Source: a virus. Taken from it: a stretch of 64,000 bases of DNA. The notes under the pieces are model-generated. The model had not been told where the DNA came from. It was given only the letters and a program-made list of their open reading frames with translations, and made no database searches. The position numbers were made by a program, and so were the translations under genes. Of the stretch, positions 27,502 through 64,000 are shown piece after piece. The DNA lies in the IMG/VR virus record IMGVR_UViG_3300046512_000174, positions 29,466-93,465 of that record; one strand, written 5' to 3'. Position 1 is the stretch's first letter, and the number at the start of each line of letters is the position of its first letter.

Positions 27502-27523
27502 TCGTGACAATACCCTCGCTCAA
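27502..27523 (+). promoter_or_regulatory. Late promoter motif
   Basis: TCGTGA-CAA-TACCCT. Confidence 0.7.
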
Positions 27524-27550
27524 TACCCTACCCAACCCACGGAACGAATA

Positions 27551-28069
27551 GTGTCAAACGACGATCTCGAAACCACGATTGCGTATGCCCGCGCGCTATA
27601 CGAGGGCACGCATGGCATGACCATCACGCAGCTGTCGGAGATCACCCAGATCGCGCCGCGCACGCTGAAGATCTACAGCAGCGATCAGAAGTGGAAAAAG
27701 GAACTCGAAACCAAGACCGGCGCCACCACGCAGTCGGCGATCGAGGCTGCTGCTCATTTCTCCGGTCAGCAGCTGATGCGCGAGAAGGAAGGCGAGGAGG
27801 CGCCGGCCGAAGACAATGCGCTGGTCGAGCCTTTGCCATCCGAGCGTGATGAACTGCTGACCCGGCACAAGGCTGAATGGAAAGTGCCGCGCGCGATGGC
27901 GAACGAATCGGTGAACCTGCGCACCACCAACCCGATGGCCGCATTCGAGCGCGCCAAGATGGCCAAGATCACCGCCGAGAGCCTGAAAATCATTCAGGAC
28001 GGTGAGCGCCGGGCCTACGGTATCGACAAGCCGGACGGCGACCACACCCTGCTTCTGCAAAGGACCTGA
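27551..28069 (+). CDS. Putative terminase small subunit
   Basis: N-terminal HTH-like segment, C-terminal QDGERRAYGID; late promoter; next to a ParB-MTase. Confidence 0.55.
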   Translation: MSNDDLETTIAYARALYEGTHGMTITQLSEITQIAPRTLKIYSSDQKWKKELETKTGATTQSAIEAAAHFSGQQLMREKEGEEAPAEDNALVEPLPSERDELLTRHKAEWKVPRAMANESVNLRTTNPMAAFERAKMAKITAESLKIIQDGERRAYGIDKPDGDHTLLLQRT

Positions 28070-28072
28070 TCG

Positions 28073-29578
28073 ATGGACATGAACCAGATGATGGGCCTCG
28101 ACGTCGAGATCCCGCAAATCACCCTGCGGCCGATCGAAAGCATGGTCGCCTACCACAACAACTCGCGCACGCACTCGATCGGGCAGCTGGCCGAGATTGG
28201 CGCAAGCCTGCTGGAATTTGGTTGGACCAACCCGATTCTGGCCGATGCGCTGGGCACCGTCGCCGGCCACGGACGCACCATGGCCGCCGCCGAGCTGTAT
28301 CGCCAAGGCAAGCAGATCCTGTTCCCCAACGGTTCGCCGATCCCGATCGGCATGGTGCCCGTGGTCGACTGCACCGGCTGGAGCGATGCCCAGCGCCGCG
28401 CCTACATCATCGCCGACAACAAGCTGGCCCTGAACGCGGGGTGGGACATGGACCTGCTGAGTATCGAATTGACCGAGCTGGGCGAACTGGGTTTCGACCT
28501 ATCGCTGACCGGCTTCAACGAGGATGAACTCGCCGACCTGCTCACGATCGAGGAGCCTGAGCTGCCGGACGCTGATCCAGATGCCGCGCCAGCGCTAGAG
28601 GACAACGCCGTTTCCGTGCTCGGCGATGTCTGGGTGCTCGGCCCGCACCGGGTCTGTTGCGGTGACAGCACCAGCCTCGATGATTGGGATCGCCTGATGC
28701 AGGGCGAGCGCGCCGATATCTGCTGGACTGACCCGCCGTACAACGTGGACGTCGGCCGGAAAAACCGCCTGATGGACACCGTCGATGGCCAGTCGCGAGG
28801 GGCAACCGGATCGCTGAAGAACGACAAGATGAGCGACGCCGACTTCGGTGAGTTCATGCTCGACTTCTACAAGGCCACGATCGAGCAGCTGAAGGCCGGC
28901 GCGCCGATCTACGTGGCGCACGCCGATCGCACCGGGGACATTTTCCGGAACGCTTTCATCGCCGCCGGCTTCCACTTCAGTCAGACGATCATCTGGCGCA
29001 AGAACAACCATGTGCTCGGCGTGGCCGACTACCAGTCGATCCACGAACCAATCCTGTACGGCTGGCGCCCGGGCTCGAAACACAAGTGGCATGGCGGCCG
29101 GAAGAACAAGACCGTCATTGAAATCGGCGAAGGCGGCCCGATCAGCAAGACCGAGGACGGCCGGTGGGTGATCAAGGTCGGTGATCAGGTGCTGATCGTC
29201 GATGGTCAGGCGACCCTGCAGGAAAGCCAGTCGTCGATGATCTACGAGCCGAAGCCGGCCAAGTCAGGTCTGCACCCGACGCAGAAGCCCGTTGCACTGG
29301 TCGAGCGGATGCTGAAGAACAGCGCGCGCTCCGGTGATCTGGTGGTCGACGCGTTCGGCGGTTCCGGGACCACGCTGCTGGCAGCCGACCGCATGGGCAT
29401 GTCTGCCCGACTTATGGAACTCGACCCGCGTTTCGCCGACGTGATCGTGCGGCGCTGGCAGGATTACACCGGGCGCCGTGCGTGCCATGCGCTCACTGGC
29501 GAACTGTTCCCCGGTGAGGGCGAGGTTCGTCCGGATCCGGCGCCGCAACCACCGATGGGCGATGAGGATATTTTCTGA
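28073..29578 (+). CDS. ParB-like domain + DNA methyltransferase
   Basis: NSRTHS, FGWTNPIL, AGHGR, ADNKLA; TDPPYN, HPTQKP, DAFGGSGTT. Confidence 0.92.
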   Translation: MDMNQMMGLDVEIPQITLRPIESMVAYHNNSRTHSIGQLAEIGASLLEFGWTNPILADALGTVAGHGRTMAAAELYRQGKQILFPNGSPIPIGMVPVVDCTGWSDAQRRAYIIADNKLALNAGWDMDLLSIELTELGELGFDLSLTGFNEDELADLLTIEEPELPDADPDAAPALEDNAVSVLGDVWVLGPHRVCCGDSTSLDDWDRLMQGERADICWTDPPYNVDVGRKNRLMDTVDGQSRGATGSLKNDKMSDADFGEFMLDFYKATIEQLKAGAPIYVAHADRTGDIFRNAFIAAGFHFSQTIIWRKNNHVLGVADYQSIHEPILYGWRPGSKHKWHGGRKNKTVIEIGEGGPISKTEDGRWVIKVGDQVLIVDGQATLQESQSSMIYEPKPAKSGLHPTQKPVALVERMLKNSARSGDLVVDAFGGSGTTLLAADRMGMSARLMELDPRFADVIVRRWQDYTGRRACHALTGELFPGEGEVRPDPAPQPPMGDEDIF

Positions 29579-29859: not shown

Positions 29860-29875
29860 AACGTCAATTAGCCTA

Positions 29876-29905: not shown

Positions 29906-29936
29906 CCTGCCATCAACAACGCAGCGGGGCAGGAAC

Positions 29937-36918: not shown

Positions 36919-36979
36919 AAGTCGTGACCATAAGCTGAAGTTCCTTGATTACCCAACCCACGCAAAAGGTAACCCCGAG

Positions 36980-37276: not shown

Positions 37277-37574
37277 ATCACCACAAAAGTGTTTGAAAAA
37301 GCCCGCATCTGTGCGGGCTTTTTTGTTTATTATTAGTGGGCTAGCGCCGCTTAAAGTCCCGTGCAAACGGATGGAACAATTGGCCTACACATTGACGCTG
37401 GTGTCCAGCAACTGGCAGTCGGGGTTGTCCAGCCCCAGCACTCTGCAAGGCAACCTGCCCTTGGGGCCTGCGACTGTCGGGTGGCCGTTTAAGATGCCGC
37501 CACCAACCACGAAGAAGTCAGCCCGGCAACGCGCCCGGGCTTTTTCGTGGTCGTCGTGATGCGACGATTGCACC

Positions 37575-40500
37575 ATGACCGAACTTATCGCTGCTCCGGC
37601 AGGCCAACGTCGTGTGGCGCTGCTCATCAAAGCCAAGATCGCCCATCAGGCCGGTTACTACCTGCTGAACGGCCGCTGGCACTCCATCCACCAGCACAAG
37701 CCGGCGCCAAAGGGTGTCCCGGTGGCCGCGCACCCGAAGGCCGCGCATGCCGAGCATGTGAAGCCTTTCCCGTTGCCAGACGAGCAGGTCGAAGCGCTCA
37801 AGCTGCCGCCTGAGAACGTCAACTCCGGCACGTACAACAAGCAGCTCGACAGCCTGCTCGGTTACGCGGCCAACGGCGATGCCACGGCGATCCTCGGCAT
37901 GAACCTCGGCACCAACACCTACGGCAAGAAGTTGGCGAAAGTGGCCAACTACCTGCTGCAAGGGATGGGCGTAACCGAGGAGTATCAGGTCGCACCCGGT
38001 CAAAAGGCTGGTGAGCACCACGCGGTCAAGCAGACCCCGGCGCCGGTCGAGACGACTGCTCCGGCAGCGAATGAACCAGTGATCGCCGCTGCGGCGGTCA
38101 TCGAGGCCGCCAAAGCCGACGAGCCTGTGGTCGAGGCCGTTGTCGAGGCGCCTGCCGCACCGTTCATGGCTTACCCGTCGTCCGGTCCACTGGCCATGCC
38201 CGAGTTCGTTGAAGGCAAAACCACCACCGGCGTCGTGGATTACTACCAGACTCAGGCGATGAAGGTCATCGACATGGCAGAGTCTGGCGACCTCGACGGT
38301 CTGGTCCAGATGAAGCAGTCCGGCATGGTGCCGAACAGCAAGGGCAAAATCAGCAATACGTGGGCGGGAAAGACCGAGAACAGCAAAAAGCTGATCGCAC
38401 TGCACGACAACGCGGTCGAGCTGACTGTTGAGAACGCCCTTGATGCGCTGCCACCAGTTGCCGCCGTCGCAGAGCCAGAGCCGGTCGTGGTTGAAGCGCA
38501 AGTGGTCGCCGCCCCGGTCGTCAACACTGACCTGACATCGCAGATCCCGTGGGAAAAACTCAGCTCGCCTGAGACCAAGGGTGACGGCTCGCCGAACAAG
38601 GAAGGGATCAACGCCAACAAGAAACTGGCCGCGATCAAGGCCGCTGCCGAGGCTGGCGATATCGCCACGCTCGAAGGCATGAAGTTCGGGATCAACACCT
38701 ACGGCAAGAAACTCAATCAGGCCAAGGCGATCGCGCTGGCGTCGCTTGAGGTAATCCCGGCAGCGCCTGAACCTGTCGCAGTGGTTACCGCTCCGGTTAC
38801 CCCGCCGCCAAACACGCTTGCCATGCAGCTGGCAGACGCGAAAGGCCCGCTGGGCAAAATGGCCGTGGCTGAGCAGCACGTCGTCAAGAATGGCAAGTCG
38901 CCCGAGACCTACAAGCAGATCGCAGAGGCACATGAAGATCTGGGCAATGCCGACTCTGCCGAGCACTGGAACGCCAAGGCTGTCGATCTGGTGACCATGA
39001 ACGTCCTGTCTGGCGCGATGGCGGCAGACGGCACCGTCAATGGATCCACCAAGATCGCGGTTGAGCACATCCTGAACAGCGCTGATTCGCTCAAGGCTCA
39101 GGCTCAGGCTATCGACGCGCTCAATGAGCACGGGCATACCGGCGCTTCCAAGGCGATCCAGATGGCGATGGATGCCACGCTGCTGGATACCTTCAAGACC
39201 AATGTTTCTGCCAGCGACGAAGAGCATGAAGCGATGGCCGTGGCCAAAGATTATCTGGCTACCGGCGGCCCGTCGGCAGCCAAGGTTGACCACATCATCT
39301 CCACGCTCGAGGAGAACGGTTTCACCACCGGTGCTCAGGAATACAAAGAGGCCTACGGTCTGGACGAGGGGCCGAACGATGGCGACACCAAGCAAGGCGC
39401 TGATGGCCAGCTGGTGTTCCAGAACGGGCGCTGGCACAAGGTCAAGACTGACGATGCGGAAGCCGCTCCGGTACCGCTGAGCGCGATCGAGCATCAGGCC
39501 GTGATGGGCTACCTCAACAGCGCCGAGGCCGATGAGCTTGAACACGCTGCCGGTAAGGCCATTTTCCAGACCTTGTCCGAGGAGGAGAAACAGGCGCTGA
39601 ACGTCGAGGCTCTGAACTCCAAGCCAAAAGCTGAGCTGCATCCGCTGGACGCCATTCCGCTGCCAGATCTGTCGCACCACCTGACGCAGGCCGGTGTCGA
39701 CAAGGTCATGGCCGGGCTTGAAAAGCTAAAGGAGAACGCGAAGACCGAAGGCGCCAGCGCTTTCAAAGGCACGCTGAAGAAAATGTCGGCAAGCGGCAAG
39801 CTGATCACCAAGCTGCCGGGGAAATACGGCAATTTGTCGCTGAAAGTCGTCGGGTATGCGAACAGCCCTGAGCACTATGGAACTCTGGTTCACCAGTACG
39901 TTGAAGACCTGAAGACCGTGGCTGGCGGAAAGAACGTGAAACCCAAGCCGGCAACCGCCCCGGCACCGACGCCGCAGCCATATGGCCAGCCGCCGATCGA
40001 GTCGATGGACAACTGGAAACAGGTCGGCCCGCAGGGCGGCTCCAACCCGGGCGGCAAGTTTGTCGATGAGGCTGGGGTTGAGTGGTACTGCAAGTTCCCG
40101 AAAAGCGAGGACATCGCGAAGTCCGAGGTGCTGGCAGCCAAGCTGTACGGCGCCGCCGGGATTGAAGCGCAGGACGCCAAGCTCATCACCAAGGATGGCA
40201 AGATCGGTATCGCCAGCAAGTGGGTCGACGTCACCAAGGCGCCGGCTGCCGCTCTGGCCAAGGCTGATGGCGCCGCCGCCGGGTTCGCGGTCGATGCGTG
40301 GCTGGGCAACTGGGACGTGGTCGGTCTGGAATACGACAACCTGCAGCTGGATTCGAGCGGCAACGCCGTGCGCGTCGATGCTGGCGGCTCGCTCGAGTAC
40401 CGTGCGCAGGGAGGCAAAAAGACCTTCGGCGATACCGTGCTTGAGATCGACAGCCTGCGCGACAGCAAGATCAACCCGCAGTCGGCGAAGGTCTTTGGAA

Positions 40501-41744
40501 AACTGTCGCAGGCGGACATCACCGCGTCAGTGGCGAAAGTCTTGAAGGTCAGCGACTCGCAGATCTACTCGATGGTCAACGCCTACGGCCCGGGTACTCC
40601 CGAGGACAAGAAAAAGCTCGCGGAAACCCTGATCGCGCGCAAGGCTGACCTGCTGGCCAAGTACCCGAAAGCCAAGAAGACAAAGGTCATCACTTTCAAG
40701 CCGGAAAAGATCAGCGAGCCGCCGAGCTTCATGAGCTGGGGCAGCAGCGGCGCACCCGGCCCGTCGAGCAAGCTGTTCCTCAACGAAGCCAACGAAGCGG
40801 CCGTGCAAGCGATCTACGCGGCGGCCAAGACCGGCAGCGCGGACGCAGTCAAGGCTCTTAGCGCTGACACGTTCAACAAGAACACCGGCGAGGTCATCGG
40901 CAGCGCGCCGGTACTCGATCACCCATCGCAGCACGTAAAGGGTTACGCACAGCAGGCGCTCAACGAGATTCATCACCAGATGAATCCGCCGAAGCGCTTC
41001 CGGTTCGAGGGTGGCCACCCGCTGCACTCGCTCAACAGCGCCTATCCTTCGCACAAAGGCCCGCCGCACAGTGACGCGGTCGAGAAGGTCGGCAAGTTCC
41101 TCATGCTCGGCAGCCCGGGGATCGTATCGCTGGATGCGCTGGCACTGCCGAAGATCACCCACGCCAGCGGTGCATTGACCAAAGCGACTTATTCCCCTGC
41201 TGCACAGGCCGCGCTCAAGCAGATGCCGGAAACCCAGAAACAGGCGATCAAGTCATACACCGGCAGCGGTTATGGCAACATGAACAGCTCACTGTGGACC
41301 GGCAACCCGAGCGGTGCCGCCAAGTCTGCTGGCGAGGCGTTGCACGCGCTTGGGCATGAGATTGCGCCCGGCACCGTGCTGTCACGAAAGCTCAGTGTGC
41401 ATGGCACGGCGCTCGACCAGATCCTCAAGTCGGCTGGCAAGGTGCTACAAGAGCCGGCTATTATGTCGACATCCATTCGCCCTTCATCGTGGTCGGGCAA
41501 CGTGCATCTAAAACTGCATGTTGGCCCGGGCGTGAAAGGCCTTTGGGTTGGCCCGGGTTCCACCGGCGGTAAAGGCGCGCTGTCGCTGAACGCCGGTGAG
41601 GACGAACTGATTTTGCCACCGAACACCCGACTGCTGATCATGTCGGTAAAACATGCGGGAGGCGGCGACTCTGATGGGTTCGGCACCGGCTCCAGTCACA
41701 TTGTCGAGGCAGTAATTCTGCCAACCCAGCAGGCGGCCTCATGA
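37575..41744 (+). CDS. Polyvalent virion protein: repeats + HipA/PI3-4K-like kinase + VIP2-type ADP-ribosyltransferase
   Basis: Kinase-like GGSNPGG, WYCKF, SEVLA, DAWLGNWD, RVDAG; ART SYTGSGYGNMN, SRK, MSTS, GEDELILP (R-S-E); leaderless late promoter at 37554. Confidence 0.8.
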   Translation: MTELIAAPAGQRRVALLIKAKIAHQAGYYLLNGRWHSIHQHKPAPKGVPVAAHPKAAHAEHVKPFPLPDEQVEALKLPPENVNSGTYNKQLDSLLGYAANGDATAILGMNLGTNTYGKKLAKVANYLLQGMGVTEEYQVAPGQKAGEHHAVKQTPAPVETTAPAANEPVIAAAAVIEAAKADEPVVEAVVEAPAAPFMAYPSSGPLAMPEFVEGKTTTGVVDYYQTQAMKVIDMAESGDLDGLVQMKQSGMVPNSKGKISNTWAGKTENSKKLIALHDNAVELTVENALDALPPVAAVAEPEPVVVEAQVVAAPVVNTDLTSQIPWEKLSSPETKGDGSPNKEGINANKKLAAIKAAAEAGDIATLEGMKFGINTYGKKLNQAKAIALASLEVIPAAPEPVAVVTAPVTPPPNTLAMQLADAKGPLGKMAVAEQHVVKNGKSPETYKQIAEAHEDLGNADSAEHWNAKAVDLVTMNVLSGAMAADGTVNGSTKIAVEHILNSADSLKAQAQAIDALNEHGHTGASKAIQMAMDATLLDTFKTNVSASDEEHEAMAVAKDYLATGGPSAAKVDHIISTLEENGFTTGAQEYKEAYGLDEGPNDGDTKQGADGQLVFQNGRWHKVKTDDAEAAPVPLSAIEHQAVMGYLNSAEADELEHAAGKAIFQTLSEEEKQALNVEALNSKPKAELHPLDAIPLPDLSHHLTQAGVDKVMAGLEKLKENAKTEGASAFKGTLKKMSASGKLITKLPGKYGNLSLKVVGYANSPEHYGTLVHQYVEDLKTVAGGKNVKPKPATAPAPTPQPYGQPPIESMDNWKQVGPQGGSNPGGKFVDEAGVEWYCKFPKSEDIAKSEVLAAKLYGAAGIEAQDAKLITKDGKIGIASKWVDVTKAPAAALAKADGAAAGFAVDAWLGNWDVVGLEYDNLQLDSSGNAVRVDAGGSLEYRAQGGKKTFGDTVLEIDSLRDSKINPQSAKVFGKLSQADITASVAKVLKVSDSQIYSMVNAYGPGTPEDKKKLAETLIARKADLLAKYPKAKKTKVITFKPEKISEPPSFMSWGSSGAPGPSSKLFLNEANEAAVQAIYAAAKTGSADAVKALSADTFNKNTGEVIGSAPVLDHPSQHVKGYAQQALNEIHHQMNPPKRFRFEGGHPLHSLNSAYPSHKGPPHSDAVEKVGKFLMLGSPGIVSLDALALPKITHASGALTKATYSPAAQAALKQMPETQKQAIKSYTGSGYGNMNSSLWTGNPSGAAKSAGEALHALGHEIAPGTVLSRKLSVHGTALDQILKSAGKVLQEPAIMSTSIRPSSWSGNVHLKLHVGPGVKGLWVGPGSTGGKGALSLNAGEDELILPPNTRLLIMSVKHAGGGDSDGFGTGSSHIVEAVILPTQQAAS

Positions 41745-45839: not shown

Positions 45840-46329
45840 GCACTGTAGAGCACCACATCCTGCGCCTCAGTGCGCAGAAAGGGCGCCTCTACTACTTCCA
45901 AGGAAACTTTTTTCATCCGATGGATCTGGTCGGCGACTCGATCGGCAAGGTCAAGCGCGGGATTCGAGAATTCATGCGCGATAACCAGCAGCTGGTGGAC
46001 GCCGATCGGTCGAGTCCTGACTATCGGACACTGGTTCAACTTGGTGAGGCTACATCATGAAACGCCGAATCGTCTGGAGCTGCCGGCCAATGCCATACGG
46101 CTTCCATATACTGGCCACGGCGCCGGTGTCCGGTAAGTCGCTGGATATCAACGTCGCGCTCGATGGTCAGCTTTGGAAGGAAGCTAAGAGCCCGGTTGCT
46201 CTCATGGCTGATCTGACAAAACAAGTCGAGAAGACGTTCGACGCCATCGACAGCTACATTCCTTCCGGCACTACCCGCCACTAAACCATCCGGGCAGGGG
46301 TGGCGTCGTCGTGACGCCATCCTTTCCCG

Positions 46330-48960
46330 ATGACTAGAAAACCCTCGATAAAACTCCCTACGCCGCATCGCGTACAGCAGAAGATTCTCGACAAAGCCAG
46401 CCGCTTCAACGCGGTCGCCATGGGCGAACAGGGCGGGAAAACCACCCTCGGCATTGAGGTGCTTTTGCTTGGCCCGCGCGGAGCTATCAAAGGCAAAGCC
46501 CCGGTCGGATGGTTCTCGGCTACCGAATCCAAAATGCTCGAAGTTGTTGGCATGGTGGTGGCAGCGATCGCGCCGCTGATCAAGCGCCGCGTGAGCAACA
46601 AGCGGATCGACCTGACCACCGGCGGTTCGATGTTCTTCTACAGCATGGACGACCTGCCCGAGGTGTATGAGCAGTTCGGTCTGGTCGTTGTCGATGATGT
46701 CTGCCGGGTAAATGGATTCCTGTCCACCTATGAGCCGGTGCTCACGCAAGCCCTCGAAGCCCACAATGGCGACGCGTGGTTCCTGTCTGGCGCCTACGGT
46801 AAGCGCAACGACTTCCACAAGCTGCTACAGGCCGGCAAGCAGGATCCTGACTGGTCGTGCTGGCAGTTCGATTCGTTCTGCAACCCGTTCCTGAGCGAAG
46901 CCACCAAGGAGGAGGCCGACAAGGTCAGTGAACCAGAGTACCTGCAGCGCTTCGGCGCCGAGTTTCTGGATGTTGCGATCGAGCTGACCAATGCGCAGCG
47001 GGTCATCGGCCCGGATGAAACATTCCGCCAGTGGGTTGAGCGACTTGCGGCTGATGGCCTCAAGGTCGACGGGCGCGCATTCAAGCTGTCCGACCGCCCT
47101 GCCATGGCGTGGATCTACGATCAGGTCCCCAGCACCGCAGACGAGGCATTCCGTTACGTGCTGGTGCTGATGAAGTGCGCGCAGGTGGGATTTACCGTCA
47201 TGGAAATGCTGGCGGTGATCTATCTGGGGATCAAGTTTCAGCCGGCGACCGTGGGCATGTTCCTGCCCGATATGAACTTGGCCGGCCTCAAGTCTGCCGA
47301 ACGTTTCATGCCGATCGTGCGCACCATCCCGGACGTTCACAACCTGATGACTATGGATGACCCGAACGGCGGCGGCAGGAAGTCTGGCGAAGGCAACGTG
47401 CGGACGCGGCGGATCTCCGAGGCGATGTTCGTCTTCAGCTGGACCTCCGGTCGATCGACCACGGAATCGATCCCGATGGACATCCTGTCGTTCGACGAAG
47501 TGCAGGAAATGACACTCGAGCAGCTGGAGAAGACCCGCGAACGTCTGTCTGCGAGCCCGATCCGTTTTACGCTGATGGGGAGCACCGCGAACTGGCCGGA
47601 CGTGGATATTCACCACTGGTACAAAAAGGGCAGCAAGCACCGGTTCCATACCGAGTGCCCGCACTGCCTTGAGGCCAAGCCGCTGGATGACTATTTCCCG
47701 GAGTGCATCAAATACGACAAGATCACCAACCGGCATCGCTACGTTTGCTTCAGCTGCCAAGGCTGGATCGACGACACCCAGCGCGGCGAGTGGGTTGCAG
47801 AAGAACCCGAGCTTGATCCGCCGATCGACCATTCGATGCCAAAGCGCGACTGGCCATTGCGTATTCGCTCAATTCACTTTCCGCAGTTCCTGTCGCCGAC
47901 CATCTCGGCCGGCGAGATCATCGACGCGTACAACACCGCTACGGACATGAAGAACTTTTTCAACCGTAAGCTGGGCAAGCCGTACCTTGACCCGAGTCAG
48001 GTGCCGGTCACGCTCGAGCACATGGCGAACTGCGCCAAGGTCGGTATGGCCGCCGGTATCGTCTGGAAGTCGCGCGCGAAGGGCGCCTACATGGGAATCG
48101 ACCAGATGGGTAACTTCAACGTTCATGTGATCAAGGAACGGCTGCCAGACGGGCGTCAGGCCGTGATCCACGTTGAGGAAACCTACAGCGCGGATCCGTT
48201 CGCGCGATCGGCTGAGCTGATGGACCTTTACGGCATCGCCATCTGCGTGGTCGAGATCAACCCGAACTACAACGACGCGAAAAAGTTCGCAAACCAGTTC
48301 CCCGGCCGGGTGTTCATCTGCAACAGCTTCGGCAGCATGATGGAAGGCATGATTCAGTGGGGCGACACGCCGAAACTCGATCGCAGCGATCGGCGCACCG
48401 ATGAGGACGCTCAGGATCGCTACACCCTGAAAATGGACCAGTACAAGTGCATGCAGGTCAGCATGTCGCGCTTCACCACACCCGAACCGTCCTGCATTTT
48501 CCCAGATCCGCAGGGGTTGGTTCAGGAAGTCATCGACAAGGGCCAGAAACAGATGGTGGCCGTCCTCCCGCGCGTGTTCCACCACTTCACCAAGACCGCA
48601 CTTGTGGCGGAAAAGGACGAGGAAACGAACCAGTACCGGCGATCGGTGAAAAAGGTCGGCATCGACCCCCACTTCAGCTACGCCAACATGCTGTGCGATG
48701 TGGCATGGTCGCGCTCACACGGCACCACCACGTTCATCCTGCCCGATATCGACAGCACCCAGCGCGGCCTGCTGGAGCCGGGCAACATTCAGGTGCCGGG
48801 CACGATCGCTGCTGCAATGCATGAACAGCAGATGGCGCTGGAGGACACCTGCGGGCGCTGCACACACTTCAACGAGGAAACCCGCATGTGCGCGGAGAAC
48901 ATGGTTCTGACCCGGGCCACAAGTCCGAGCTGCTACGCCTACATCGCCAAGCAGTCGTGA
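46330..48960 (+). CDS. Terminase large subunit (degenerate N-terminal ATPase-like domain + gpA-type terminase)
   Basis: PHRVQ...GEQGGKTT...VVDD; then MKCAQVGFT, SFDEV, GSTAN, zinc finger, MGIDQ nuclease; leaderless late promoter at 46309. Confidence 0.85.
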   Translation: MTRKPSIKLPTPHRVQQKILDKASRFNAVAMGEQGGKTTLGIEVLLLGPRGAIKGKAPVGWFSATESKMLEVVGMVVAAIAPLIKRRVSNKRIDLTTGGSMFFYSMDDLPEVYEQFGLVVVDDVCRVNGFLSTYEPVLTQALEAHNGDAWFLSGAYGKRNDFHKLLQAGKQDPDWSCWQFDSFCNPFLSEATKEEADKVSEPEYLQRFGAEFLDVAIELTNAQRVIGPDETFRQWVERLAADGLKVDGRAFKLSDRPAMAWIYDQVPSTADEAFRYVLVLMKCAQVGFTVMEMLAVIYLGIKFQPATVGMFLPDMNLAGLKSAERFMPIVRTIPDVHNLMTMDDPNGGGRKSGEGNVRTRRISEAMFVFSWTSGRSTTESIPMDILSFDEVQEMTLEQLEKTRERLSASPIRFTLMGSTANWPDVDIHHWYKKGSKHRFHTECPHCLEAKPLDDYFPECIKYDKITNRHRYVCFSCQGWIDDTQRGEWVAEEPELDPPIDHSMPKRDWPLRIRSIHFPQFLSPTISAGEIIDAYNTATDMKNFFNRKLGKPYLDPSQVPVTLEHMANCAKVGMAAGIVWKSRAKGAYMGIDQMGNFNVHVIKERLPDGRQAVIHVEETYSADPFARSAELMDLYGIAICVVEINPNYNDAKKFANQFPGRVFICNSFGSMMEGMIQWGDTPKLDRSDRRTDEDAQDRYTLKMDQYKCMQVSMSRFTTPEPSCIFPDPQGLVQEVIDKGQKQMVAVLPRVFHHFTKTALVAEKDEETNQYRRSVKKVGIDPHFSYANMLCDVAWSRSHGTTTFILPDIDSTQRGLLEPGNIQVPGTIAAAMHEQQMALEDTCGRCTHFNEETRMCAENMVLTRATSPSCYAYIAKQS

Positions 48961-48995
48961 AACCAGACTGGTCACTTCGATAGACGAGGTGACCG

Positions 48996-49637
48996 ATGAA
49001 AATGAAACTGCTGGATTATCCACGCGCTCTGGCGCAGGCGATCGGATTGATCGCTCTGCGCGTGGTGCTGATCGTTGCCGGGTTTGCGGTCGTCCCGATC
49101 GCATTGCCATTCCGCAAGGTGGACGCAAGCACCACCAAACCGTTCAAAGAGAACGCCGGTAACTGGACGCTGGTCACGCTGCCGCGCTGGGCGTGGCTGT
49201 GGTCCAACGACCGTGACGGGGCAATGGGTGATGAGCGTGGCTGGTGGCACGTCAACGGGCCGTTTGGGCTGCCATCCGATCACTGGTTTTCGATGCTGGT
49301 TTGGCTGGCCTTCCGCAACCCGGCGAACAACGCGCGCTTCACCAAGTTCATGGGCTGCCCGGTGCTGGATTGCGTGTATGACTACTGGGGCGACAAGGTG
49401 GTCAAGGATAAGGTAGGGAATGCCGGGCGCCGATTTCTGGTCGCCACCCACAAAGTAACTGACCGACGCTACTACGGCTTCTACTGGGTGAAGATCTGGA
49501 ACCCACAGCGCGCACTGGTCGTGCAGATCGGGTTCAAAGGAGAGCCATCGGACTGGCAAGAGGATTATTCTGGCGATGAGAGCCGTCAGTGGAAAGGGCT
49601 GACCTGCGAGATCAACCCGTGGAAGAATATCGCCTGA
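48996..49637 (+). CDS. Late membrane-anchored phage protein
   Basis: N-terminal hydrophobic helix, WLAFRNPANN; late motif at 48955. Confidence 0.7.
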   Translation: MKMKLLDYPRALAQAIGLIALRVVLIVAGFAVVPIALPFRKVDASTTKPFKENAGNWTLVTLPRWAWLWSNDRDGAMGDERGWWHVNGPFGLPSDHWFSMLVWLAFRNPANNARFTKFMGCPVLDCVYDYWGDKVVKDKVGNAGRRFLVATHKVTDRRYYGFYWVKIWNPQRALVVQIGFKGEPSDWQEDYSGDESRQWKGLTCEINPWKNIA

Positions 49638-49640
49638 CGG

Positions 49641-52411: not shown

Positions 52412-52481
52412 GGTTCATGGCGAGAATTGAACTCGCGACGCGCCTTTTGTGAGGTCGCTCTACCAACTGAGCTACATGATC
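52412..52481 (-). ncRNA. tRNA-like element with shortened anticodon arm, no CCA
   Basis: GATCATG-TA-GCTCAGTTGGTAGAGC...GCGAGTTCAATTCTCGC-CATGAAC. Confidence 0.6.
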
Positions 52482-53226: not shown

Positions 53227-53302
53227 TGGCAGGTCGTCAGGGATTCGAACCCCATCCACACGGCTTTGGAGGCCGGCATGCATGCCATCACAACCACGAC
53301 CC
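53227..53302 (-). tRNA. tRNA-Trp (CCA) with atypical D arm
   Basis: 76 nt; acceptor GGGTCGT/ACGACCT, loop CT-CCA-AA, GTTCGAAT, 3' G-CCA. Confidence 0.75.
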
Positions 53303-53715: not shown

Positions 53716-53814
53716 TTCGCCGCTCGATGTCTTTAGTGATTGCGGGATCATAACTCAAATATGATTAGCGTCAAAGATAGCAGCGACAAACCGTCGTGAC
53801 GGCATGCTGTGGCC

Positions 53815-55455
53815 ATGACCGACAATGCCATCCAAACCGCGCACGACCCTTCTGCTCCGAAAGATGAGCAGCAGGACGCCATGCGCGAAGCACAAAAGAA
53901 CGCGATCCCGAGCAGTGTCGAAGACATGATGCCGCTGATCAAATTCATGACCCAGCAATACGAGGATCAGCAGTTCGCGAAGGCGCTGACAAAGCCCAAC
54001 GTGATCCCGTATCCAAGCATGGCGGCCGCCAAGGGCGAATCCGGTATGCAGTCCGTATATCTGGACGAGCGCCGGGTCGAGATGCTTGGGGAGTATTACG
54101 AGCGCCCGGGGGCCTTCGGCTTCGACATGATGCGCGCAATGGTCGACCAGACGCCGATCCTGTCGGCGGTGATCATGACCCGCGAGCGGCAGATCCGTCG
54201 GTTCTGTCGTGTGCAGGAAACCGGGAAAGGCCCCGGATTCGCGATCCGGCACAAGGACCAGAGCATCAAGATGGGCAAGACCGAGCAGAGCACCATCACT
54301 CTGCTCGAAAGCTTTTTCACGAACTGCGGCTGGGAGTCGAAGCCGCGTCAGCGCATGCGCCTGCGTCGCGACAACTTTTCCGGATTCATGTCGAAGCTGG
54401 TGCGGGACACGCTGACCATGGACAGCGCCGCGATCGAAACCGAGTGGAAGCGTGACAAGGCCAAAGGCCTCGACGGCATGTACGCGGTCGACGGTGCGAC
54501 CATCCGCCTCTGCACCGAGTCGGGCTACCGTGGCGATGATGAGCTGTTCGCGCTACAGGTGGTTCAGGGCAACATCCGCGCGGCCTACACCTATGACGAT
54601 TTGATCTACGTCCCGCGCAACCCGCGCACCGACGTGATGGTCGGCGGTTACGGCATGTCCGAGGTTGAGCTGCTGATCAAGGTGGTCACTGGCTTCCTCA
54701 ACGCCATGACTTACAACCTCAAGTTCTTCGACTCGAACACGATCCCGAAAGGGATCCTGCACATGGCCGGCGACTACAGCGCCGAAGACCTGAACAGCTT
54801 CAAGCGCTACTGGAACGCCATGACCAAGGGCGTGGCCAACGCGTGGACCATGCCGGTCATGATCGCCAAGAATGGCGAGTCGAAAGCGTCGTTTGAGAAA
54901 TTCGATGTCGATGTCGACGAGCTGATGTTTGGCAAGTGGATGACCTTCCTCACATCGATCATCTGCGCGATCTACGGCATGGCGCCGGATGAAATCAACT
55001 TTGAGAGCTTCACCACGGGCACCAGCTCGCTGAGCGGTAGCGACACCGAGGAAAAGTTGATCAACTCCAAGGACAAGGGGTTACGGCCGCTGCTGTCCTA
55101 CTTCGAGGATCTGTTTTCCGATTACGTCGTGTCTGAGTTCAACGAGAACTACGTGTTCCGCTGGACCGGTCTGGACGAGATGGATTCCAAACAGGCTTGG
55201 ACTGAGGAAAACGCGATCAGCACTTGGGGCGAGGCTCGCAAGGCTCGTGGTCAGGATGAAATCGCAGACGACGTGCTCAACAACGCGCCGCTCAACCCGA
55301 ACCTGATGGGCATCTACATGCAAACCGTGATGGGTGGCGGCGATGATGATTCACAGCCAGCAGGCGCCGCGCCAGCCAAGCCGAAAAAGGCACCGAAAAG
55401 CGATAGCGAGTTGCAAAAGGCCTTTGGCCTCCCGCAGTTCAGGGTAGATCCGTAA
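53815..55455 (+). CDS. Portal protein
   Basis: YAVDGATIR, YGMSEVE, NLKFF...PKGIL, YGMAPDEINF, KGLRPLL; leaderless late promoter at 53794. Confidence 0.9.
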   Translation: MTDNAIQTAHDPSAPKDEQQDAMREAQKNAIPSSVEDMMPLIKFMTQQYEDQQFAKALTKPNVIPYPSMAAAKGESGMQSVYLDERRVEMLGEYYERPGAFGFDMMRAMVDQTPILSAVIMTRERQIRRFCRVQETGKGPGFAIRHKDQSIKMGKTEQSTITLLESFFTNCGWESKPRQRMRLRRDNFSGFMSKLVRDTLTMDSAAIETEWKRDKAKGLDGMYAVDGATIRLCTESGYRGDDELFALQVVQGNIRAAYTYDDLIYVPRNPRTDVMVGGYGMSEVELLIKVVTGFLNAMTYNLKFFDSNTIPKGILHMAGDYSAEDLNSFKRYWNAMTKGVANAWTMPVMIAKNGESKASFEKFDVDVDELMFGKWMTFLTSIICAIYGMAPDEINFESFTTGTSSLSGSDTEEKLINSKDKGLRPLLSYFEDLFSDYVVSEFNENYVFRWTGLDEMDSKQAWTEENAISTWGEARKARGQDEIADDVLNNAPLNPNLMGIYMQTVMGGGDDDSQPAGAAPAKPKKAPKSDSELQKAFGLPQFRVDP

Positions 55456-55486
55456 CGGCGGATCGTCGTGACGCAATGATCAACGC

Positions 55487-55765
55487 ATCAGGCCCAAGCA
55501 TCCCCTAAGTCTGAGGGGGCCGGGAGGGGTTAAGCTCCCGGGTACTATTCACCTTGCATCGCTCAAGGTTTTGAGTCGGCAACGACCCATGCAGACAAAG
55601 CGGAGAAGCGCAACCCCCCTGTAGACTTGGTTCCCCCCGTCCTCGCCAAGTCTATAAGTCGCCAAGGGTGGGAGTCCGATGCTGTCGGTCGGTGGATGTC
55701 CAGACGCTCCGCTGGCGCCACCGACTGGGGCGACCCTTCACTCTCCAAAGGATGCGCTTGTGGCT
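55487..55765 (+). ncRNA. Structured RNA / long leader candidate between portal and MuF-like gene
   Basis: Late motif at 55466; multiple hairpins incl. a GCAA tetraloop; 5'-3' closing helix. Confidence 0.55.
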
Positions 55766-56902
55766 TTTCTCCTCGACCTCACACCTATCAGCCGGCAGAC
55801 AACCAACGCCGCGCTCGAATTCATTTACAAGGCAGTCCATGATGGCGAAGACGGCATCTGGAGTCCGCATGAGTCCGTGCTGATCCGCCGACTTGTCGAG
55901 CTGTTCTCCGAGCGCGGCCTCGATCGTCTTGAGCACGTCAAACAGCAGATCATCGCATGGGAAAACGGTGACCACTTCAAACCCGGCGCGCCTCAGCCTG
56001 TTGCCGTCCCGGGCATGATGGGGCGCTGGTCTGACGCCGAGCTGAAACTGGTCCGTGTTTACCTCGAATCGCTCCCGCCGAGCAGCTGGTCGCTGGATGA
56101 CCACATGATGGCCGTCGATTACGTGGTTCAGCGCTACCTGCCGGCTGACGAGTTGCGCACCGAGGCAGAGTGGATGGCCACTCGCGCAAACCTCATGGGT
56201 AAGGTGCAAGCCAACCTCGATCAGGCCGCCACGGTCACGCAGGCAGATAAGATTCTGGCTGCGCTGCCGTCAACCATGGGCGCCGCCGTCCAGCAGTTCA
56301 ACATCAATCAGCAGCAGCTGACGACCATGGCGTTCGGCAATGCCCGAGCCGCCGAGAATGTGCGCGCGCTGGGTGATGACGTCAGGCACCGGATGCGCAA
56401 CGCGGTGATGCAGCACCTTGAGGAGGAATTCACCGGCGGCACCAGCGAATCGCTGCAGACCAAGTTGCTCGACCAGTTCGCCACGCTGAACCGCGACTGG
56501 CGCCGGATTGCCGTTACCGAGGCAGGCGAGACCCTGAATCAGGGTTTCATCGCGAACCTCGCTCCCGGCACGAAGGTCCAGCGGATCGAGCAGTACGCCA
56601 ACGCGTGTGCGTTCTGCCGCAAGATCCACAAGCGGATTGCCACGGTGGTTTCGCCGGATAAACCCGACAAGGATGGCGAAACAGAGATCTGGGTCGGCAA
56701 AAACAACATTGGCCGGTCGGCATCTCCGCGCAAGCGTGTAGGTGACACGCTGGTCAATCGCACGCCAGATGAAATGTACTGGTTACCCGCCGGACTTGCG
56801 CATCCGCACTGTCGTGGGCGTTGGGTGCCGGTGATTCAGGATCTGCCCGGAGATGACCCGGAGTTCGGCGACTGGCTGCGCAAGACGCTCGGCGGCGAAT
56901 AG
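55760..56902 (+). CDS. Head morphogenesis (MuF/SPP1 gp7-like) protein
   Basis: RDWRRIAVTE, CAFC, HPHCRGRW; GTG start after AAGGA; follows the portal. Confidence 0.8.
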   Translation: MAFLLDLTPISRQTTNAALEFIYKAVHDGEDGIWSPHESVLIRRLVELFSERGLDRLEHVKQQIIAWENGDHFKPGAPQPVAVPGMMGRWSDAELKLVRVYLESLPPSSWSLDDHMMAVDYVVQRYLPADELRTEAEWMATRANLMGKVQANLDQAATVTQADKILAALPSTMGAAVQQFNINQQQLTTMAFGNARAAENVRALGDDVRHRMRNAVMQHLEEEFTGGTSESLQTKLLDQFATLNRDWRRIAVTEAGETLNQGFIANLAPGTKVQRIEQYANACAFCRKIHKRIATVVSPDKPDKDGETEIWVGKNNIGRSASPRKRVGDTLVNRTPDEMYWLPAGLAHPHCRGRWVPVIQDLPGDDPEFGDWLRKTLGGE

Positions 56903-57134: not shown

Positions 57135-57264
57135 ACGCTAATCTGAGCGCCGGCCCTGATGGAGGTCGTAGCCACACGGCAACCATCAACACTAAGCCGC
57201 CTACGGGCGGCTTTTTCATGCCTGCGATTCGCCACGCAAACTGTCGTGACGACACCATTGCGTC

Positions 57265-58158
57265 ATGACAGAAGCCCAGCACCAAAGCGCCAACCCGGAA
57301 TATCTAAGCATCGGAACGATGCTGAAGGCTCGTCCCTCCGAGGAGAAAGGCGAGCGCTTCATTTATCTGGAAGCAAGTCGCGAAGGCGCCGACCAGCAAA
57401 ACGATATCGTCCTCGCGAAAGCGCTGGAGGATTCTGCGCCCCACTTCCTCAAGTTCGGAAACATCGATATCGACCATAAGTCGATGCCGTCGATCGCTGC
57501 CCAGTACGGCATCACCGAACCTGAAGCGTGGGAGGTCGGCGTTCCCGAGGAAGTTCGCGTTGAAGGCCCCTCGGTGTTCGTCAAGGCGCGCCTGTTCAAG
57601 GGTGATACTCAGCTCGCATCCAAGGCCAACATGGTCTGGGAGAGTATGACGCAGCTGAGCCCACCAGCGCGCTGGTACGCATCTGTAGGCGGCGCCACTC
57701 TGGCCCGTCGCGACGGCGTTGATCACCTGACCAAATCCAAAGTCAGCTACGTGACCAAGGTTCGCTGGAGCAACTTGGCTATCAGCCGCCAGCCAGTTAA
57801 CCAGCACGTTTCTGCTGCAAGCACCATTCCCTTCGGGATCCTCGCTAAGTGCTGGACTCCGGCAGGCTTCGACATGGCGAAAGCTTTGGAAGCCAGCTAC
57901 GCCACCGACGTCTCCCAGCTTTCCGGTGGTGGCGCACTCGGCATGCAATCGATCGATGCCGGACCTTCCTATTTTCAGTTCCGCGATCAGCTTTCTGAAT
58001 CGCTACTGGAAGGTCGTGACCACATCATTCAATCCGCACAAGGCTTGGCAGATTACGCCATGCACAAATTCGGTCTGTCTCGCGTTGAGGCAGTTGAATG
58101 GGTAACCCGTTTCATGCGCGACATCAAAAACTCACTGACAAAACGAGGCTCGGAATGA
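57265..58158 (+). CDS. Prohead protease
   Basis: EASRE..DQQND, GNIDIDH, ASVGG, AISRQPVN; position before scaffold and capsid; leaderless late promoter at 57244. Confidence 0.8.
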   Translation: MTEAQHQSANPEYLSIGTMLKARPSEEKGERFIYLEASREGADQQNDIVLAKALEDSAPHFLKFGNIDIDHKSMPSIAAQYGITEPEAWEVGVPEEVRVEGPSVFVKARLFKGDTQLASKANMVWESMTQLSPPARWYASVGGATLARRDGVDHLTKSKVSYVTKVRWSNLAISRQPVNQHVSAASTIPFGILAKCWTPAGFDMAKALEASYATDVSQLSGGGALGMQSIDAGPSYFQFRDQLSESLLEGRDHIIQSAQGLADYAMHKFGLSRVEAVEWVTRFMRDIKNSLTKRGSE

Positions 58159-61177: not shown

Positions 61178-61180
61178 ACC

Positions 61181-62278: not shown

Positions 62279-62910
62279 AATTCAATCGCGGGCACTTCAA
62301 CCGGTTCCTGAACAACATCGGCCAGCAGTTCATCTGGCAGCGTTCCTACGCATGCTCCTGCGTAACGGCAGCAGAAGGTTCGGCGGATCCGAAGTGCTCG
62401 CTGTGCTTGGGCAAGGCCTACTTCTGGACCAACCCGACACCGGCGTCGGCGGCATCGGCTGGGCAGAAGACGCAGAACATGTGGGCAAAGATGGGCATGT
62501 GGCAGAATGGCGACATGGTGATGACCGTGCCGGAGAACTCGCCGCTGTGGGATGCAGGACCTTTCGATCGAGTAACCATGCTCAACGCCACGGATCGATT
62601 TTCGCTGCCACTGAAGCGCGGTGCGCCGACCGAAAGAATTCTGTTCACTCCGAAAAAGGTTGAGCGAGTGTTCTGGAAGGATGCAGCTACCGGAACCCTT
62701 GTCGAGGGTGGGATTCCGGTTTTTGACGCCAACGGTCGTCCAACATGGACCACTGGAGAGCCGCCGCCGGGGATGAACTATTCGGTCAGCGGGACGCGCC
62801 TGTCTGAATACTTCCTGTACATGGATTTCCCGCACAACCGCAACATGCATGACGGTATGCGCCTGCCGAAACTCACGGTGTTGCGCCGCTGGGATCTGAT
62901 GGGGCGCTAG
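62275..62910 (+). CDS. Head closure/neck protein with Cys motif
   Basis: CSC...CSLCLGK; position. Confidence 0.6.
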   Translation: MKFNRGHFNRFLNNIGQQFIWQRSYACSCVTAAEGSADPKCSLCLGKAYFWTNPTPASAASAGQKTQNMWAKMGMWQNGDMVMTVPENSPLWDAGPFDRVTMLNATDRFSLPLKRGAPTERILFTPKKVERVFWKDAATGTLVEGGIPVFDANGRPTWTTGEPPPGMNYSVSGTRLSEYFLYMDFPHNRNMHDGMRLPKLTVLRRWDLMGR

Positions 62911-63764
62911 CCCTGCATCTTGGTCACGGTGCGCTTGATCGCTTCCTCGAACGCCGATAGCGCTTTCTGCTGCATATCCTCCGACGTCTTCTGCGCGATC
63001 TGCTGCCCCGGTTGGGGCGGCACGATCCAACCGCCAGACCCTTCCATCATTACCCGGAACGTCAGATAGGCCGACGACTTGCCGCCGCCCGGCGTGCTGG
63101 TGTCGAAACGATGCATGCCCTGAGCCCATGCACGCGTTCCGGGCATCATCCCTGCGCGCATGTTGCTTTTTTTCAGGCTACCACCCCACGAGTAGTGGTT
63201 TTTATTGACCATCATGGTCGACTTTGTTTTCGCATTCGACAGATACGGTGTCTGGTTCGTGGACGGCGACATACCGGCCGTTGGCGACAGGTTAGTGACC
63301 TCACCGCTCGGTCGCTCGCTCTGCTCAAGGATCGTCGACGGGTCAAGGTCCTTTGCCATGTTGTAGATGCCGGCGGCTTCCAGCTTTGCCACGTTATGCC
63401 GCAGCGGGATGATCAGGAACCGTCGGCCATCTTCGGTGCGGCGCACCTTGAGGCTGGTGCCGAGCATCTTCTTCAGGTCTTTCGCCGGACGGCCGTTTTC
63501 GATTTCTTGGTCGTATCGGTAATCCGACTCGACCAACGCGGTGAAGTCGCCGGTCATGTGCCAACCGATCGTTTTGGCGTAGGCGTCTTTCTCGCCAGAC
63601 CACAACTTCGCCTGATAGACATTCGCCTGCCAGTTCGCGGCGGTCTGTGCGGCAACTGCGCGCACGGCCTGATTAAGCAGCGGAAAGATCTGCTTGTTGA
63701 TGATCCCGACGCCGTCAAGAGCGTCGCCGAGGTTGAACGTGAGTTTGAAGTTTAGGTCTGCCAT
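62907..63764 (-). CDS. Putative neck/tail-completion morphogenesis protein
   Basis: IENGRPAKDLK, YLTFRVM, GWIVP; own leaderless late promoter starting at 63785. Confidence 0.6.
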   Translation of the reverse strand: MADLNFKLTFNLGDALDGVGIINKQIFPLLNQAVRAVAAQTAANWQANVYQAKLWSGEKDAYAKTIGWHMTGDFTALVESDYRYDQEIENGRPAKDLKKMLGTSLKVRRTEDGRRFLIIPLRHNVAKLEAAGIYNMAKDLDPSTILEQSERPSGEVTNLSPTAGMSPSTNQTPYLSNAKTKSTMMVNKNHYSWGGSLKKSNMRAGMMPGTRAWAQGMHRFDTSTPGGGKSSAYLTFRVMMEGSGGWIVPPQPGQQIAQKTSEDMQQKALSAFEEAIKRTVTKMQG

Positions 63765-63824
63765 GGGCTCAGCGTCGCGTCACGATGGCGCCCCGGCAAA
63801 TCGTCGTGACGCCATCATAATCCC

Positions 63825-64000
63825 ATGATCTCTATTATCCGGCCGATCGCCGTCGGCAACGCCTTGCGACTATTCCTCGAACCCCCGGCGGGCGCGACGA
63901 AGTGGCGCGTTTTGCGCAAAGGCAGCGACACGATCGCATCCTTCGATGACCCGTCAGCGCTGCTGGTGTTTGAGGGTGAAACCAAGTTTTTCGTTGATGC
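63825..64000 (+). CDS. Late structural gene (partial)
   Basis: ATG 21 nt after TCGTGA at 63804; frame open to the window end. Confidence 0.65.
   Translation, partial: MISIIRPIAVGNALRLFLEPPAGATKWRVLRKGSDTIASFDDPSALLVFEGETKFFVD

Follow-up and report, generated by a model that had tools for sequence, protein, structure and literature searches.

The window analysed here comprises 64,000 nucleotides (nt), i.e., bases 29466-93465 of the 93,465-bp virus record IMGVR_UViG_3300046512_000174, which carries direct terminal repeats, originates from a rhizosphere metagenome, is 100% complete according to CheckV and has a GC content of 58.5%. Two DNA methylase genes, a TerS-like gene, the gene of a 1389-amino acid (aa) ADP-ribosyltransferase (ART), the large terminase gene and a DUF7338 gene are located in the window together with the portal gene, a head protein gene, the prohead protease operon and a divergent head-tail gene pair, and all of these are preceded by copies of a composite signal, in which the hexamer TCGTGA is followed at fixed distance by a minimal -10 box (pattern TCGTGA-N4-A-N3-T). 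It is quite likely that this signal defines a phage-specific class of late promoters, from which host RNA polymerase (RNAP) together with a phage factor would transcribe many first cistrons as leaderless mRNAs beginning with a 5'-AUG.

Head-gene DNA of this phage is 64-73% identical to that of several cultured phages. By this measure, Dolphis, Jeremy, and Touem01 of Pseudomonas are relatives and Morganella phage Mecenats66 is a more distant one; further cultured relatives are Bordetella phage PHB04 (genus Phabquatrovirus), Aeromonas phage ST4, E. coli phage ECML-606-1, Enterobacter phage phiT5282EW, and Yersinia phage fHe-Yen8-01. Since the genome encodes a tyrosine integrase and a scan of bacterial genome contigs revealed related elements in bacterial chromosomes, the group is regarded as temperate.

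The composite pattern was found 13 times in the window, compared to 1.75 +/- 1.4 matches in 100 sequence shuffles, none of which reached 13. Plain TCGTGA shows no enrichment (30 occurrences in the window versus 38.7 expected), and thus the composite signal and not the bare hexamer is special. The complete genome contains 17 matches. According to self-trained gene calls, all but one or two of these are located directly upstream of late, packaging, lysis, or methylase genes on the same strand; those outside the window precede the tail chaperone and tape measure, baseplate, fibre, and lysis genes. No site occurs between genome positions 17348 and 50581, a region of 33 kb with the integrase, recombination, replication, and early genes. 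The ten sites listed in an earlier reading of the window, made from the letters alone (the sequence-only reading), were all recovered, and three are additional, namely 21116(+), 58014(+), and 41387(-). The following sites were assigned in the window, where the promoters are predicted and offsets are given relative to the T of TCGTGA:

21115-21130, plus strand: late promoter with G at -22, TCGTGA, and the -10-like hexamer CAGGTT; DNA methylase gene 21138-22472 with its ATG at +22
27501-27516, plus strand: late promoter; leader of approximately 28 nt, then a TerS-like/helix-turn-helix (HTH) gene with GTG start (27551-28069), then a methylase gene (28073-29578)
36921-36936, plus strand: late promoter; leader, then a small open reading frame (ORF) with ATG at 36980
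37553-37568, plus strand: late promoter of the gene for the 1389-aa Alt-like ART (37575-41744), ATG exactly at +21
41373-41387, minus strand: pattern match antisense inside the ART gene, without G at -22; probably a chance match
46308-46323, plus strand: late promoter of the large terminase gene (46330-48960), ATG exactly at +21
48954-48969, plus strand: late promoter; 20-nt leader with Shine-Dalgarno (SD) sequence (GAGGTG), then the DUF7338 gene (48996-49637)
53793-53808, plus strand: late promoter of the portal gene (53815-55455), ATG exactly at +21
55465-55480, plus strand: late promoter just past the portal stop codon; leader of approximately 190 nt, then the head protein gene (55679-56902)
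57243-57258, plus strand: late promoter of the prohead protease gene (57265-58158), ATG exactly at +21, heading the operon of protease, scaffold, and major capsid genes
58013-58028, plus strand: possible but uncertain internal promoter inside the protease gene, 5' of the scaffold and capsid genes; G at -22 present
63771-63786, minus strand: leftward promoter of the divergent pair; ATG 63764 at +21, gene 62907-63764
63803-63818, plus strand: rightward promoter of the divergent pair; ATG 63825 at +21, head-tail gene running off the window

A single antisense intragenic match, as found at 41373-41387, is the number expected by chance. An intragenic site similar to that at 58013 is also present in ECML-606-1 (L007:24307). 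The stop codon TGA of the large terminase gene forms the final three bases of the next TCGTGA box (48955-48960), and a hairpin GGTCAC...GTGACC pairs the last bases before the predicted start of this transcript with the SD of the DUF7338 gene. The exact 12-mer ACCCAACCCACG occurs at 27530-27541 and 36951-36962, each time 28-29 nt 3' of a late box and inside the predicted leader of an SD-poor gene, and may represent a shared leader element.

For the description of the promoter anatomy, positions were numbered such that the T of TCGTGA lies 21 nt upstream of +1. A logo of 63 sites in four complete genomes consists of G-22 (53/63), TCGTGA (-21 to -16), Y-15, a weak g-c-c, A-11, c, a, A/C-8, and T-7, which amounts to a signal of 16 bases: GTCGTGAY, three bases, and a minimal -10 box. 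An independent logo of 55 distinct portal promoters from uncultured contigs is the same. The leftward promoter of the divergent pair occurs in nature with GCGTGA or TAGTGA as well, which shows GTGA (-19 to -16) to be the hard core of the box. The constancy of A-11 and T-7 put forward by the sequence-only reading holds, as both are invariant in the logo, and the same applies to its absence of a -35 element: no logo column upstream of -22 exceeds 0.17 bit, and scans of the late regions for canonical -35/-10 promoters stayed at chance level (4 versus 6.3 and 8 versus 8.4).

Three known promoter classes were rejected on this basis. In an extended -10 sigma70 promoter, TG would be expected at -15/-14, which is not conserved here (-15 is C in 45/63 and T in 13/63; -14 is G in 36/63). 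Sigma54 promoters carry GG at -24 and GC at -12 with the transcription start site (TSS) approximately 12 nt downstream; positions -25/-24 are unconserved in our sites and this geometry would place the TSS inside genes. A promoter for an extracytoplasmic function (ECF) or phage member of the sigma70 family was rejected, too, as the conserved upstream -35 partner is missing and the domains PF04542 and PF08281 are absent in six frames.

In the most likely scenario, each of these promoters, composed of the GTCGTGAY box (-22 to -15), a weakly conserved spacer of three bases, and a -10 hexamer fixed only at A-11, A/C-8, and T-7, would be served by two partners. The -10 hexamer would be recognised and melted by host RNAP with a sigma70-type subunit, because A-11 and T-7 are the two bases that such subunits flip out of the -10 element, and a phage factor made earlier in infection would read the box and substitute for the -35 contact. 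Transcription would then start 7 nt past T-7. Due to the temperate lifestyle, the late promoters should be off without an activator made by the phage. A host sigma factor alone (sigma70, sigmaS, or sigma32) could also be considered, with the phage factor being dispensable. This is in line with the invariance of the box across phages of Alpha-, Beta-, and Gammaproteobacteria, as for a highly conserved reader, and with the frequent C at -13/-12 of the logo, which the -10 regions of sigmaS and sigma32 promoters favour as well. Temperate phages, however, would then express their lysis and terminase genes in lysogens, a minimal -10 without a -35 element or TG is normally inactive, and we know of no host promoter class with GTCGTGAY at -22. 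We therefore regard this explanation as very unlikely and retain host RNAP plus phage factor as the preferred reading.

More than 100 related phages carry the signal at orthologous genes. In Dolphis, Touem01, and PHB04, the box is kept at the portal, gp6-like head protein, protease, ART, terminase, and baseplate genes as well as at the divergent pair, and ST4, ECML-606-1, and fHe-Yen8-01 (47% GC) have it, too. The cultured phages with this box (of Pseudomonas, Bordetella, Aeromonas, E. coli, and Yersinia) span 47-66% GC. Among 77 IMG/VR contigs with mappable portal start, which contribute the 55 distinct promoter sequences, 70 have a canonical box not more than 160 nt upstream of the portal gene. 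The methylase promoter at 21115 has an ortholog in Touem01, and the promoter at 27501 has orthologs in Touem01 (6230) and Dolphis (72812). The arrangement at the ART gene is identical in Dolphis (84104) and Touem01 (14195), and that at the terminase gene is the same in Touem01 (25256), ST4 (L008:15330), and Dolphis; in the latter, the record opens with the terminase ATG, which, read across the record ends, is located exactly 21 nt past a box at 93487.

The ATGs of the divergent pair (63764 and 63825) are 60 bp apart. This spacing amounts to 59-63 bp in six of seven relatives compared, with Mecenats66 as the exception (35 bp). Between the two ATGs, no elements other than the boxes are conserved. 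Because two promoters have to fit into approximately 60 bp in which only the boxes are conserved, the motif should be the promoter itself, and the divergent pair is the cleanest argument for this assignment. That the motif instead serves as repressor operator, recombination or packaging site, or as RNA processing or translation signal we consider extremely improbable. The ability of GUCGUGAC to pair with GUCAUGAC around some start codons speaks in favour of such a function. It is opposed by the invariant A and T at -11/-7 spacing, by an ATG distance that is fixed only without leader and variable with an SD leader, and by the orientation, which is always that of the downstream gene, with back-to-back copies serving divergent genes. 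Furthermore, one site (genome position 3322) is immediately preceded by a hairpin with T run that resembles a terminator.

The distance between the promoter and the start codon is the second conspicuous property. At 64 sites in four genomes, the ATG is located at +21 in 23, at +22 in 7, and at +20 in 3 cases, and the remaining offsets from 15 to 69 occur at most five times each. Start codons GTG, TTG, or CTG were not found at +20 to +22, i.e., only ATG is used. In the present genome, eight genes have their ATG at this leaderless register, seven at +21 and the methylase gene at +22: those of the portal, protease, large terminase, virion ART, a baseplate protein, both members of the divergent pair, and the methylase. 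Within the window these are the ATG at 21138 and the six which the sequence-only reading had placed exactly 21 nt after the motif start (37554 to 37575, 46309 to 46330, 53794 to 53815, 57244 to 57265, 63804 to 63825, and 63785(-) to 63764(-)), all of which were confirmed. The transcript of the methylase gene at 21138 is so predicted to be leaderless or to have a 1-nt leader. A scan of this genome for variant boxes at the leaderless register returned canonical boxes only.

The lack of an SD sequence at the six ATGs, also noted in that reading, is borne out by the anti-SD duplex energies, with a mean of -1.5 kcal/mol at ATGs in the register versus -4.8 kcal/mol for other genes. N-termini of orthologs align from the ATGs in the register, and the annotators of Dolphis chose identical starts. 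T-7 followed by six bases and an A is the canonical geometry of sigma70 -10 recognition, and at sites with leader the +21 base is an A in 15/33 cases versus approximately 21% background, as a purine start site predicts. At 8 of the approximately 16 promoters of the genome, the start base would coincide with the first base of the initial gene's ATG. These first genes would be translated without SD, whereas downstream cistrons and the other promoters would use ordinary leaders. About half of the promoters thus probably give rise to leaderless 5'-AUG messages without ribosome-binding site.

It is conceivable that the promoters are real and the genes with ATG at +21 are nevertheless not leaderless, due to another start site or to SD-independent translation of read-through transcripts. 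Several boxes directly follow a co-oriented upstream gene, which makes read-through RNA probable, and leaderless translation is weak in E. coli-like hosts. Among the 55 distinct portal promoters, however, the ATG is located at +21 in 37 and at +22 in 6, and this exact spacing in 43/55 is maintained despite free variation of the sequence from box to hexamer and from hexamer to ATG. The restriction to ATG starts, the lack of SD sequences, and the divergent pair, which leaves no room for leaders from outside promoters, point in the same direction, and we consider this alternative quite unlikely.

In several orthologous genes of the enteric phages, the promoter is kept and followed by a leader of 17-36 nt with SD. 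The box is thus independent of the ATG, and the leaderless state so appears to be an evolvable option. At the enteric protease promoter, a two-codon ORF (ATG-TTT-TGA) is situated at +21, followed by an SD-like AAGGG and, approximately 19 nt later, by the real start (ECML-606-1, L007:22901-22950; fHe-Yen8-01, L009:3727-3775); this ORF could be left over from a leaderless start or represent a functional variant of it. For the portal genes of ST4 (L008:20004 versus 20094) and fHe-Yen8-01 (L009:587 versus 653), the deposited starts appear too far downstream. The conserved portal N-terminus (MTD...AH.P) begins at the promoter-proximal ATG, which lacks an SD in ST4.

Taken together, the late promoter class with upstream box and without -35 element proposed by the sequence-only reading is supported by the enrichment, the restriction to certain genes, the invariant A-11 and T-7, the fixed ATG offset, and the conservation at widely different GC contents, and its leaderless structural-gene mRNAs find support in silico in the offset, the exclusive use of ATG, the missing SD, and the conservation, with the start sites being predicted ones.

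The putatively leaderless first cistrons encode low-copy or catalytic proteins (portal, protease, terminase, packaged enzyme, baseplate, and connector), whereas abundant proteins use operon-internal SD sequences: tail tube -12.7, major capsid -6.3, and sheath -5.9 kcal/mol. The suggestions of the sequence-only reading that leaderless translation may set stoichiometry or evade translation shut-off fit with the identity of the putatively leaderless genes; a connection of this design to translation shut-off would be speculation. As translation starts poorly at an AUG that lies inside a message and lacks an SD, the leaderless design would imply a gate, by which just the transcripts started at the promoter would be translatable. 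Read-through RNAs would carry the AUG internally and without SD, sometimes paired with the transcribed box (GUCGUGAC/GUCAUGAC). If this applies, the terminase, the portal, the protease, and the toxin-like enzyme of the virion would be doubly silent in lysogens and in early infection.

The transcribed box GUCGUGAC can pair with GUCAUGAC at the AUG region, and in case of the protease gene a 10-bp stem is formed. Such pairing is modestly more pronounced at leaderless sites than in shuffled sequences (mean z -1.17; 9/32 below -2). Occlusion of the ribosome-binding site by sequence upstream of the TSS is not general at sites with leader (mean z -0.40; 3/34 below -2), with one clear case at the lysis promoter at genome position 17348 (z -4.9). 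As a translation block, the pairing between box and AUG at leaderless sites is suggestive only.

Regarding the reader of the box, the proteome contains neither a metal-binding motif of multisubunit RNAPs nor an unexplained giant protein. Six-frame searches for the Sigma70 domains r2 (PF04542) and r4_2 (PF08281) as well as for the Ogr_Delta domain (PF04606) were negative with positive controls, and no homolog of P1 Lpa was found here or in the DNA of six relatives by tblastn and phmmer (best E 0.25). Due to the absence of a phage RNAP motif, sigma factor, Ogr, and Lpa in these searches, host RNAP is the presumed enzyme, and since lysis, terminase, and virion genes of a temperate phage are placed under this promoter, a positive factor made by the phage is the most economical assumption.

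The complete 16-bp signal might also be read as one element by a diverged sigma-like subunit of the phage, as T4 gp55 reads TATAAATA, which would leave the promoter and the leaderless starts unchanged. The compact single block from -22 to -7, in which T at -12 is often missing, fits to this idea, and single-element promoters for phage sigma factors exist in form of the T4 late promoters. The six-frame search without Sigma70_r2 or r4_2 domain speaks against it, and no match to a gp55- or gp33-like PHROG or Pfam family was found among approximately 25 proteins scanned, including every small clade-wide one, a result to be read in view of the fast divergence of gp55-like proteins. Only five small non-structural proteins are common to the four complete genomes:

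DksA-like zinc finger protein (phrog_54)
Cro-type HTH protein, 85 aa
DUF7696 protein
P0001, 19544-20125, plus strand: 193 aa, pI 9.0, 10 Cys; first gene of the rightward early operon
P0087, 20125-20526, plus strand: 133 aa, 10 Cys, zinc-ribbon core; translationally overlapping with P0001 (TGATG)

None of these (the last two being beta-rich zinc proteins) is helical like sigma domains, and a sigma-like reader is rather unlikely on this evidence. For the preferred assumption of host RNAP with an activating phage factor, the screen of phage genes proposed by the sequence-only reading was thus negative for sigma, Lpa, and Ogr and yielded P0001 and P0087 as weak zinc-protein candidates.

P0001 is present in all ten cultured records and in 10/10 near-complete divergent contigs that use the box. 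It also occurs in 52 loci of alpha-, beta-, and gammaproteobacterial genomes, which contain approximately 100 copies of the motif versus approximately 14 expected. As the bacterial elements have retained tail or replication genes in common with the phage, the link between P0001 and the box is not independent of ancestry. In 14/39 bacterial loci, all of them with distant homologs, the box is located just upstream of the P0001-like gene or operon, once with an ATG at +21 (L139). This could reflect autoregulation, or the gene could merely belong to the regulon. Mosaic prophages of Pseudomonas, Methylobacterium, Cupriavidus, and Paraburkholderia carry distant P0001-like genes (28-40% identity) beside tail genes and lack P0087. 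Most of these distant loci (L109, L114-L116, L119, L121, L130, L134, L138, L139, and L144) have a canonical TCGTGA box on the same strand within 510 nt upstream, the exceptions being L138 and L144.

The predicted model of P0001 is confident (pLDDT 86.7), and that of P0087 is modest (pLDDT 69). For P0001, neither a Pfam or PHROG family nor a sequence relative in the PDB nor a lead from the protein atlas was obtained. The pair remains an unproven candidate for the trans-acting factor, and we are rather doubtful about this assignment. That P0001/P0087 represent a new RNAP specificity factor, which, placed only 3 bp upstream of the -10, replaces the contact of sigma region 4 with the -35 element and is combined with a leaderless gate, is a tentative proposal. 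Just upstream of P0001, between the divergent early operons, sixteen palindromic heptamers GGTWACC are situated in approximately 500 bp (18894-19400). The whole window contains 24 copies versus 2.3 expected, and the cluster is probably an iteron, origin, or regulator-binding array.

Several observations weigh against the proposed late promoter class with its leaderless starts and its phage factor. The start-site positions are inferred from sequence. T at -12 is often absent from the hexamer, and recognition by unmodified sigma70 is consequently not assured. Leaderless translation is generally inefficient in Gammaproteobacteria. The site at 55466 has a leader of approximately 190 nt (55487-55678) without explanation, which is G/C-rich and not significantly structured (z -1.0); in Dolphis and PHB04, the genes orthologous to the head protein gene 55679-56902 have their ATG at +21 and no leader. 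Mecenats66 retains P0001 (34% identity), whereas the box is mostly missing from it; some late genes of this phage follow TGATAnnnT-like sequences, but these are too common in its genome to be judged. P0001 is without known fold, as no Foldseek match with E <= 0.001 and no VIA match above Z 2.6 was obtained, and the best matches of P0087, the RNAP-associated zinc ribbons Elf1, Rpb9, and TFIIS (Z 3.7-3.9 over 41-47 residues), are too weak to count.

A literature search revealed no paper on the GTCGTGAY box and no transcription study of this phage clade. No transcription study was found in the literature on PHB04, fHe-Yen8-01, and Phabquatrovirus either, promoters are unmentioned in the Mecenats66 paper, and a full-text search for the hexamer returned primers and unrelated papers only.

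In terms of architecture, the P1 late promoters are the closest match. In the 11 late promoters of P1, an inverted repeat of 9 bp serves as the binding site of Lpa (PMC10695390). A 9-bp “-22 region” and a -10 are marked in the P1 record, with LPpac reading ATGTGACTT-N4-TACCCT. Like P1, our phage, which we take to be a temperate myophage of approximately 94 kb, has many dispersed late promoters (11 in P1, approximately 16 here) with a -10 and a box near -22 and without -35. The P1 box is an inverted repeat of 9 bp of the AAGTTACTT type, whereas GTCGTGAY is located approximately 2-3 bp nearer to the -10, so that sequence, symmetry, and register differ. Of the two P1 promoters read, LPpac and LPhot, both have leaders, in case of LPpac with a visible SD, and neither has its +1 on an ATG. 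P1 late promoters depend on host SspA. The comparison to P1 drawn by the sequence-only reading consequently stands for the architecture and fails for the family, given the missing Lpa homolog and the different box.

Promoters without -35 that are used by host RNAP are also found in Thermus phages. Those of P23-45 carry TG(TG) at -14 to -17 (PMC5758890), the late promoters of Lalka27a have TAGGGT and a C at -25, and most YS40 and Lalka27a transcripts have the start codon's A or G as their first base (bioRxiv 10.64898/2026.04.20.719267). In Deinococcus-Thermus, leaderless expression of genes is common (PMC12340547). Host RNAP and leaderless transcripts, both predicted for our phage, and phage promoters with an extra upstream determinant instead of a -35 are the shared features, whereas motifs and phages are unrelated, the hosts in our case are Proteobacteria, in which leaderless genes are rare, and only ATG is used here. 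The likeness to leaderless mRNAs of Actinobacteria and Deinococcus-Thermus and to lambda cI from PRM consists of a -10 at a fixed short distance to the ATG, the missing SD, and the 5'-terminal AUG, which is predicted here; the difference is that in these phages of Gram-negative hosts the virion and packaging genes would be programmed in this way as an entire temporal class, with a dedicated promoter box.

T4 late promoters are likewise one compact element without -35, for which the host core RNAP is reprogrammed by phage proteins (gp55/gp33/gp45). They differ by TATAAATA at -10, by leaders on the late mRNAs, and by a sigma-like phage protein and a sliding-clamp activator, of which the searches made here revealed no counterpart. 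Extended -10 (TGn) promoters likewise do without a -35 element and have an additional contact directly 5' of the hexamer, whereas the block conserved here extends from -22 to -16, farther than sigma region 3 usually reaches. P2 Ogr and P4 Delta are zinc-finger late activators, and Ogr binds a TGT-N12-ACA dyad near -55; this class was rejected, as the PF04606 domain is absent and the logo has no counterpart of the dyad. An activator-type phage late promoter without -35, combined with programmed leaderless starts that would be unusual in these hosts, is thus supported in silico.

If the start sites hold, this would be the first Gram-negative phage group known to rely on leaderless mRNAs for an entire set of virion and packaging genes, in a clade of more than 100 members with cultured phages for E. 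coli, P. putida, P. syringae, Aeromonas, Yersinia, and Bordetella. The signal would represent a new -35-independent promoter architecture and a system to study the redirection of RNAP by a contact at -22 to -15, the efficiency of 5'-AUG mRNA translation in Proteobacteria during infection, and leaderless starts as a means of tying translation to one promoter or of setting low protein copy numbers. It is tempting to speculate that such a compact, orthogonal, and infection-dependent promoter could become a tool. The signal is also of use for annotation, since gene callers expect an SD and several deposited relatives seem to have truncated portal starts for this reason.

The C-terminus of the 1389-aa protein (41190-41744) matches the PHROG “Alt-like RNA polymerase ADP-ribosyltransferase” with E 3e-7 and also exoenzyme-type ARTs, and the packaged enzyme may target host RNAP. 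A MazEF pair near the ART gene of Dolphis is missing from this genome.

Two tRNA-like genes were predicted by Rfam at 52412-52481(-) with 39.4 bits and at 53230-53302(-) with 31.2 bits, which were not reported by ARAGORN. Both are located in a gene-poor region of 1.5 kb 5' of the portal promoter, and the latter coincides with the only stretch similar to the Otagovirus phages VCM and Kremar.

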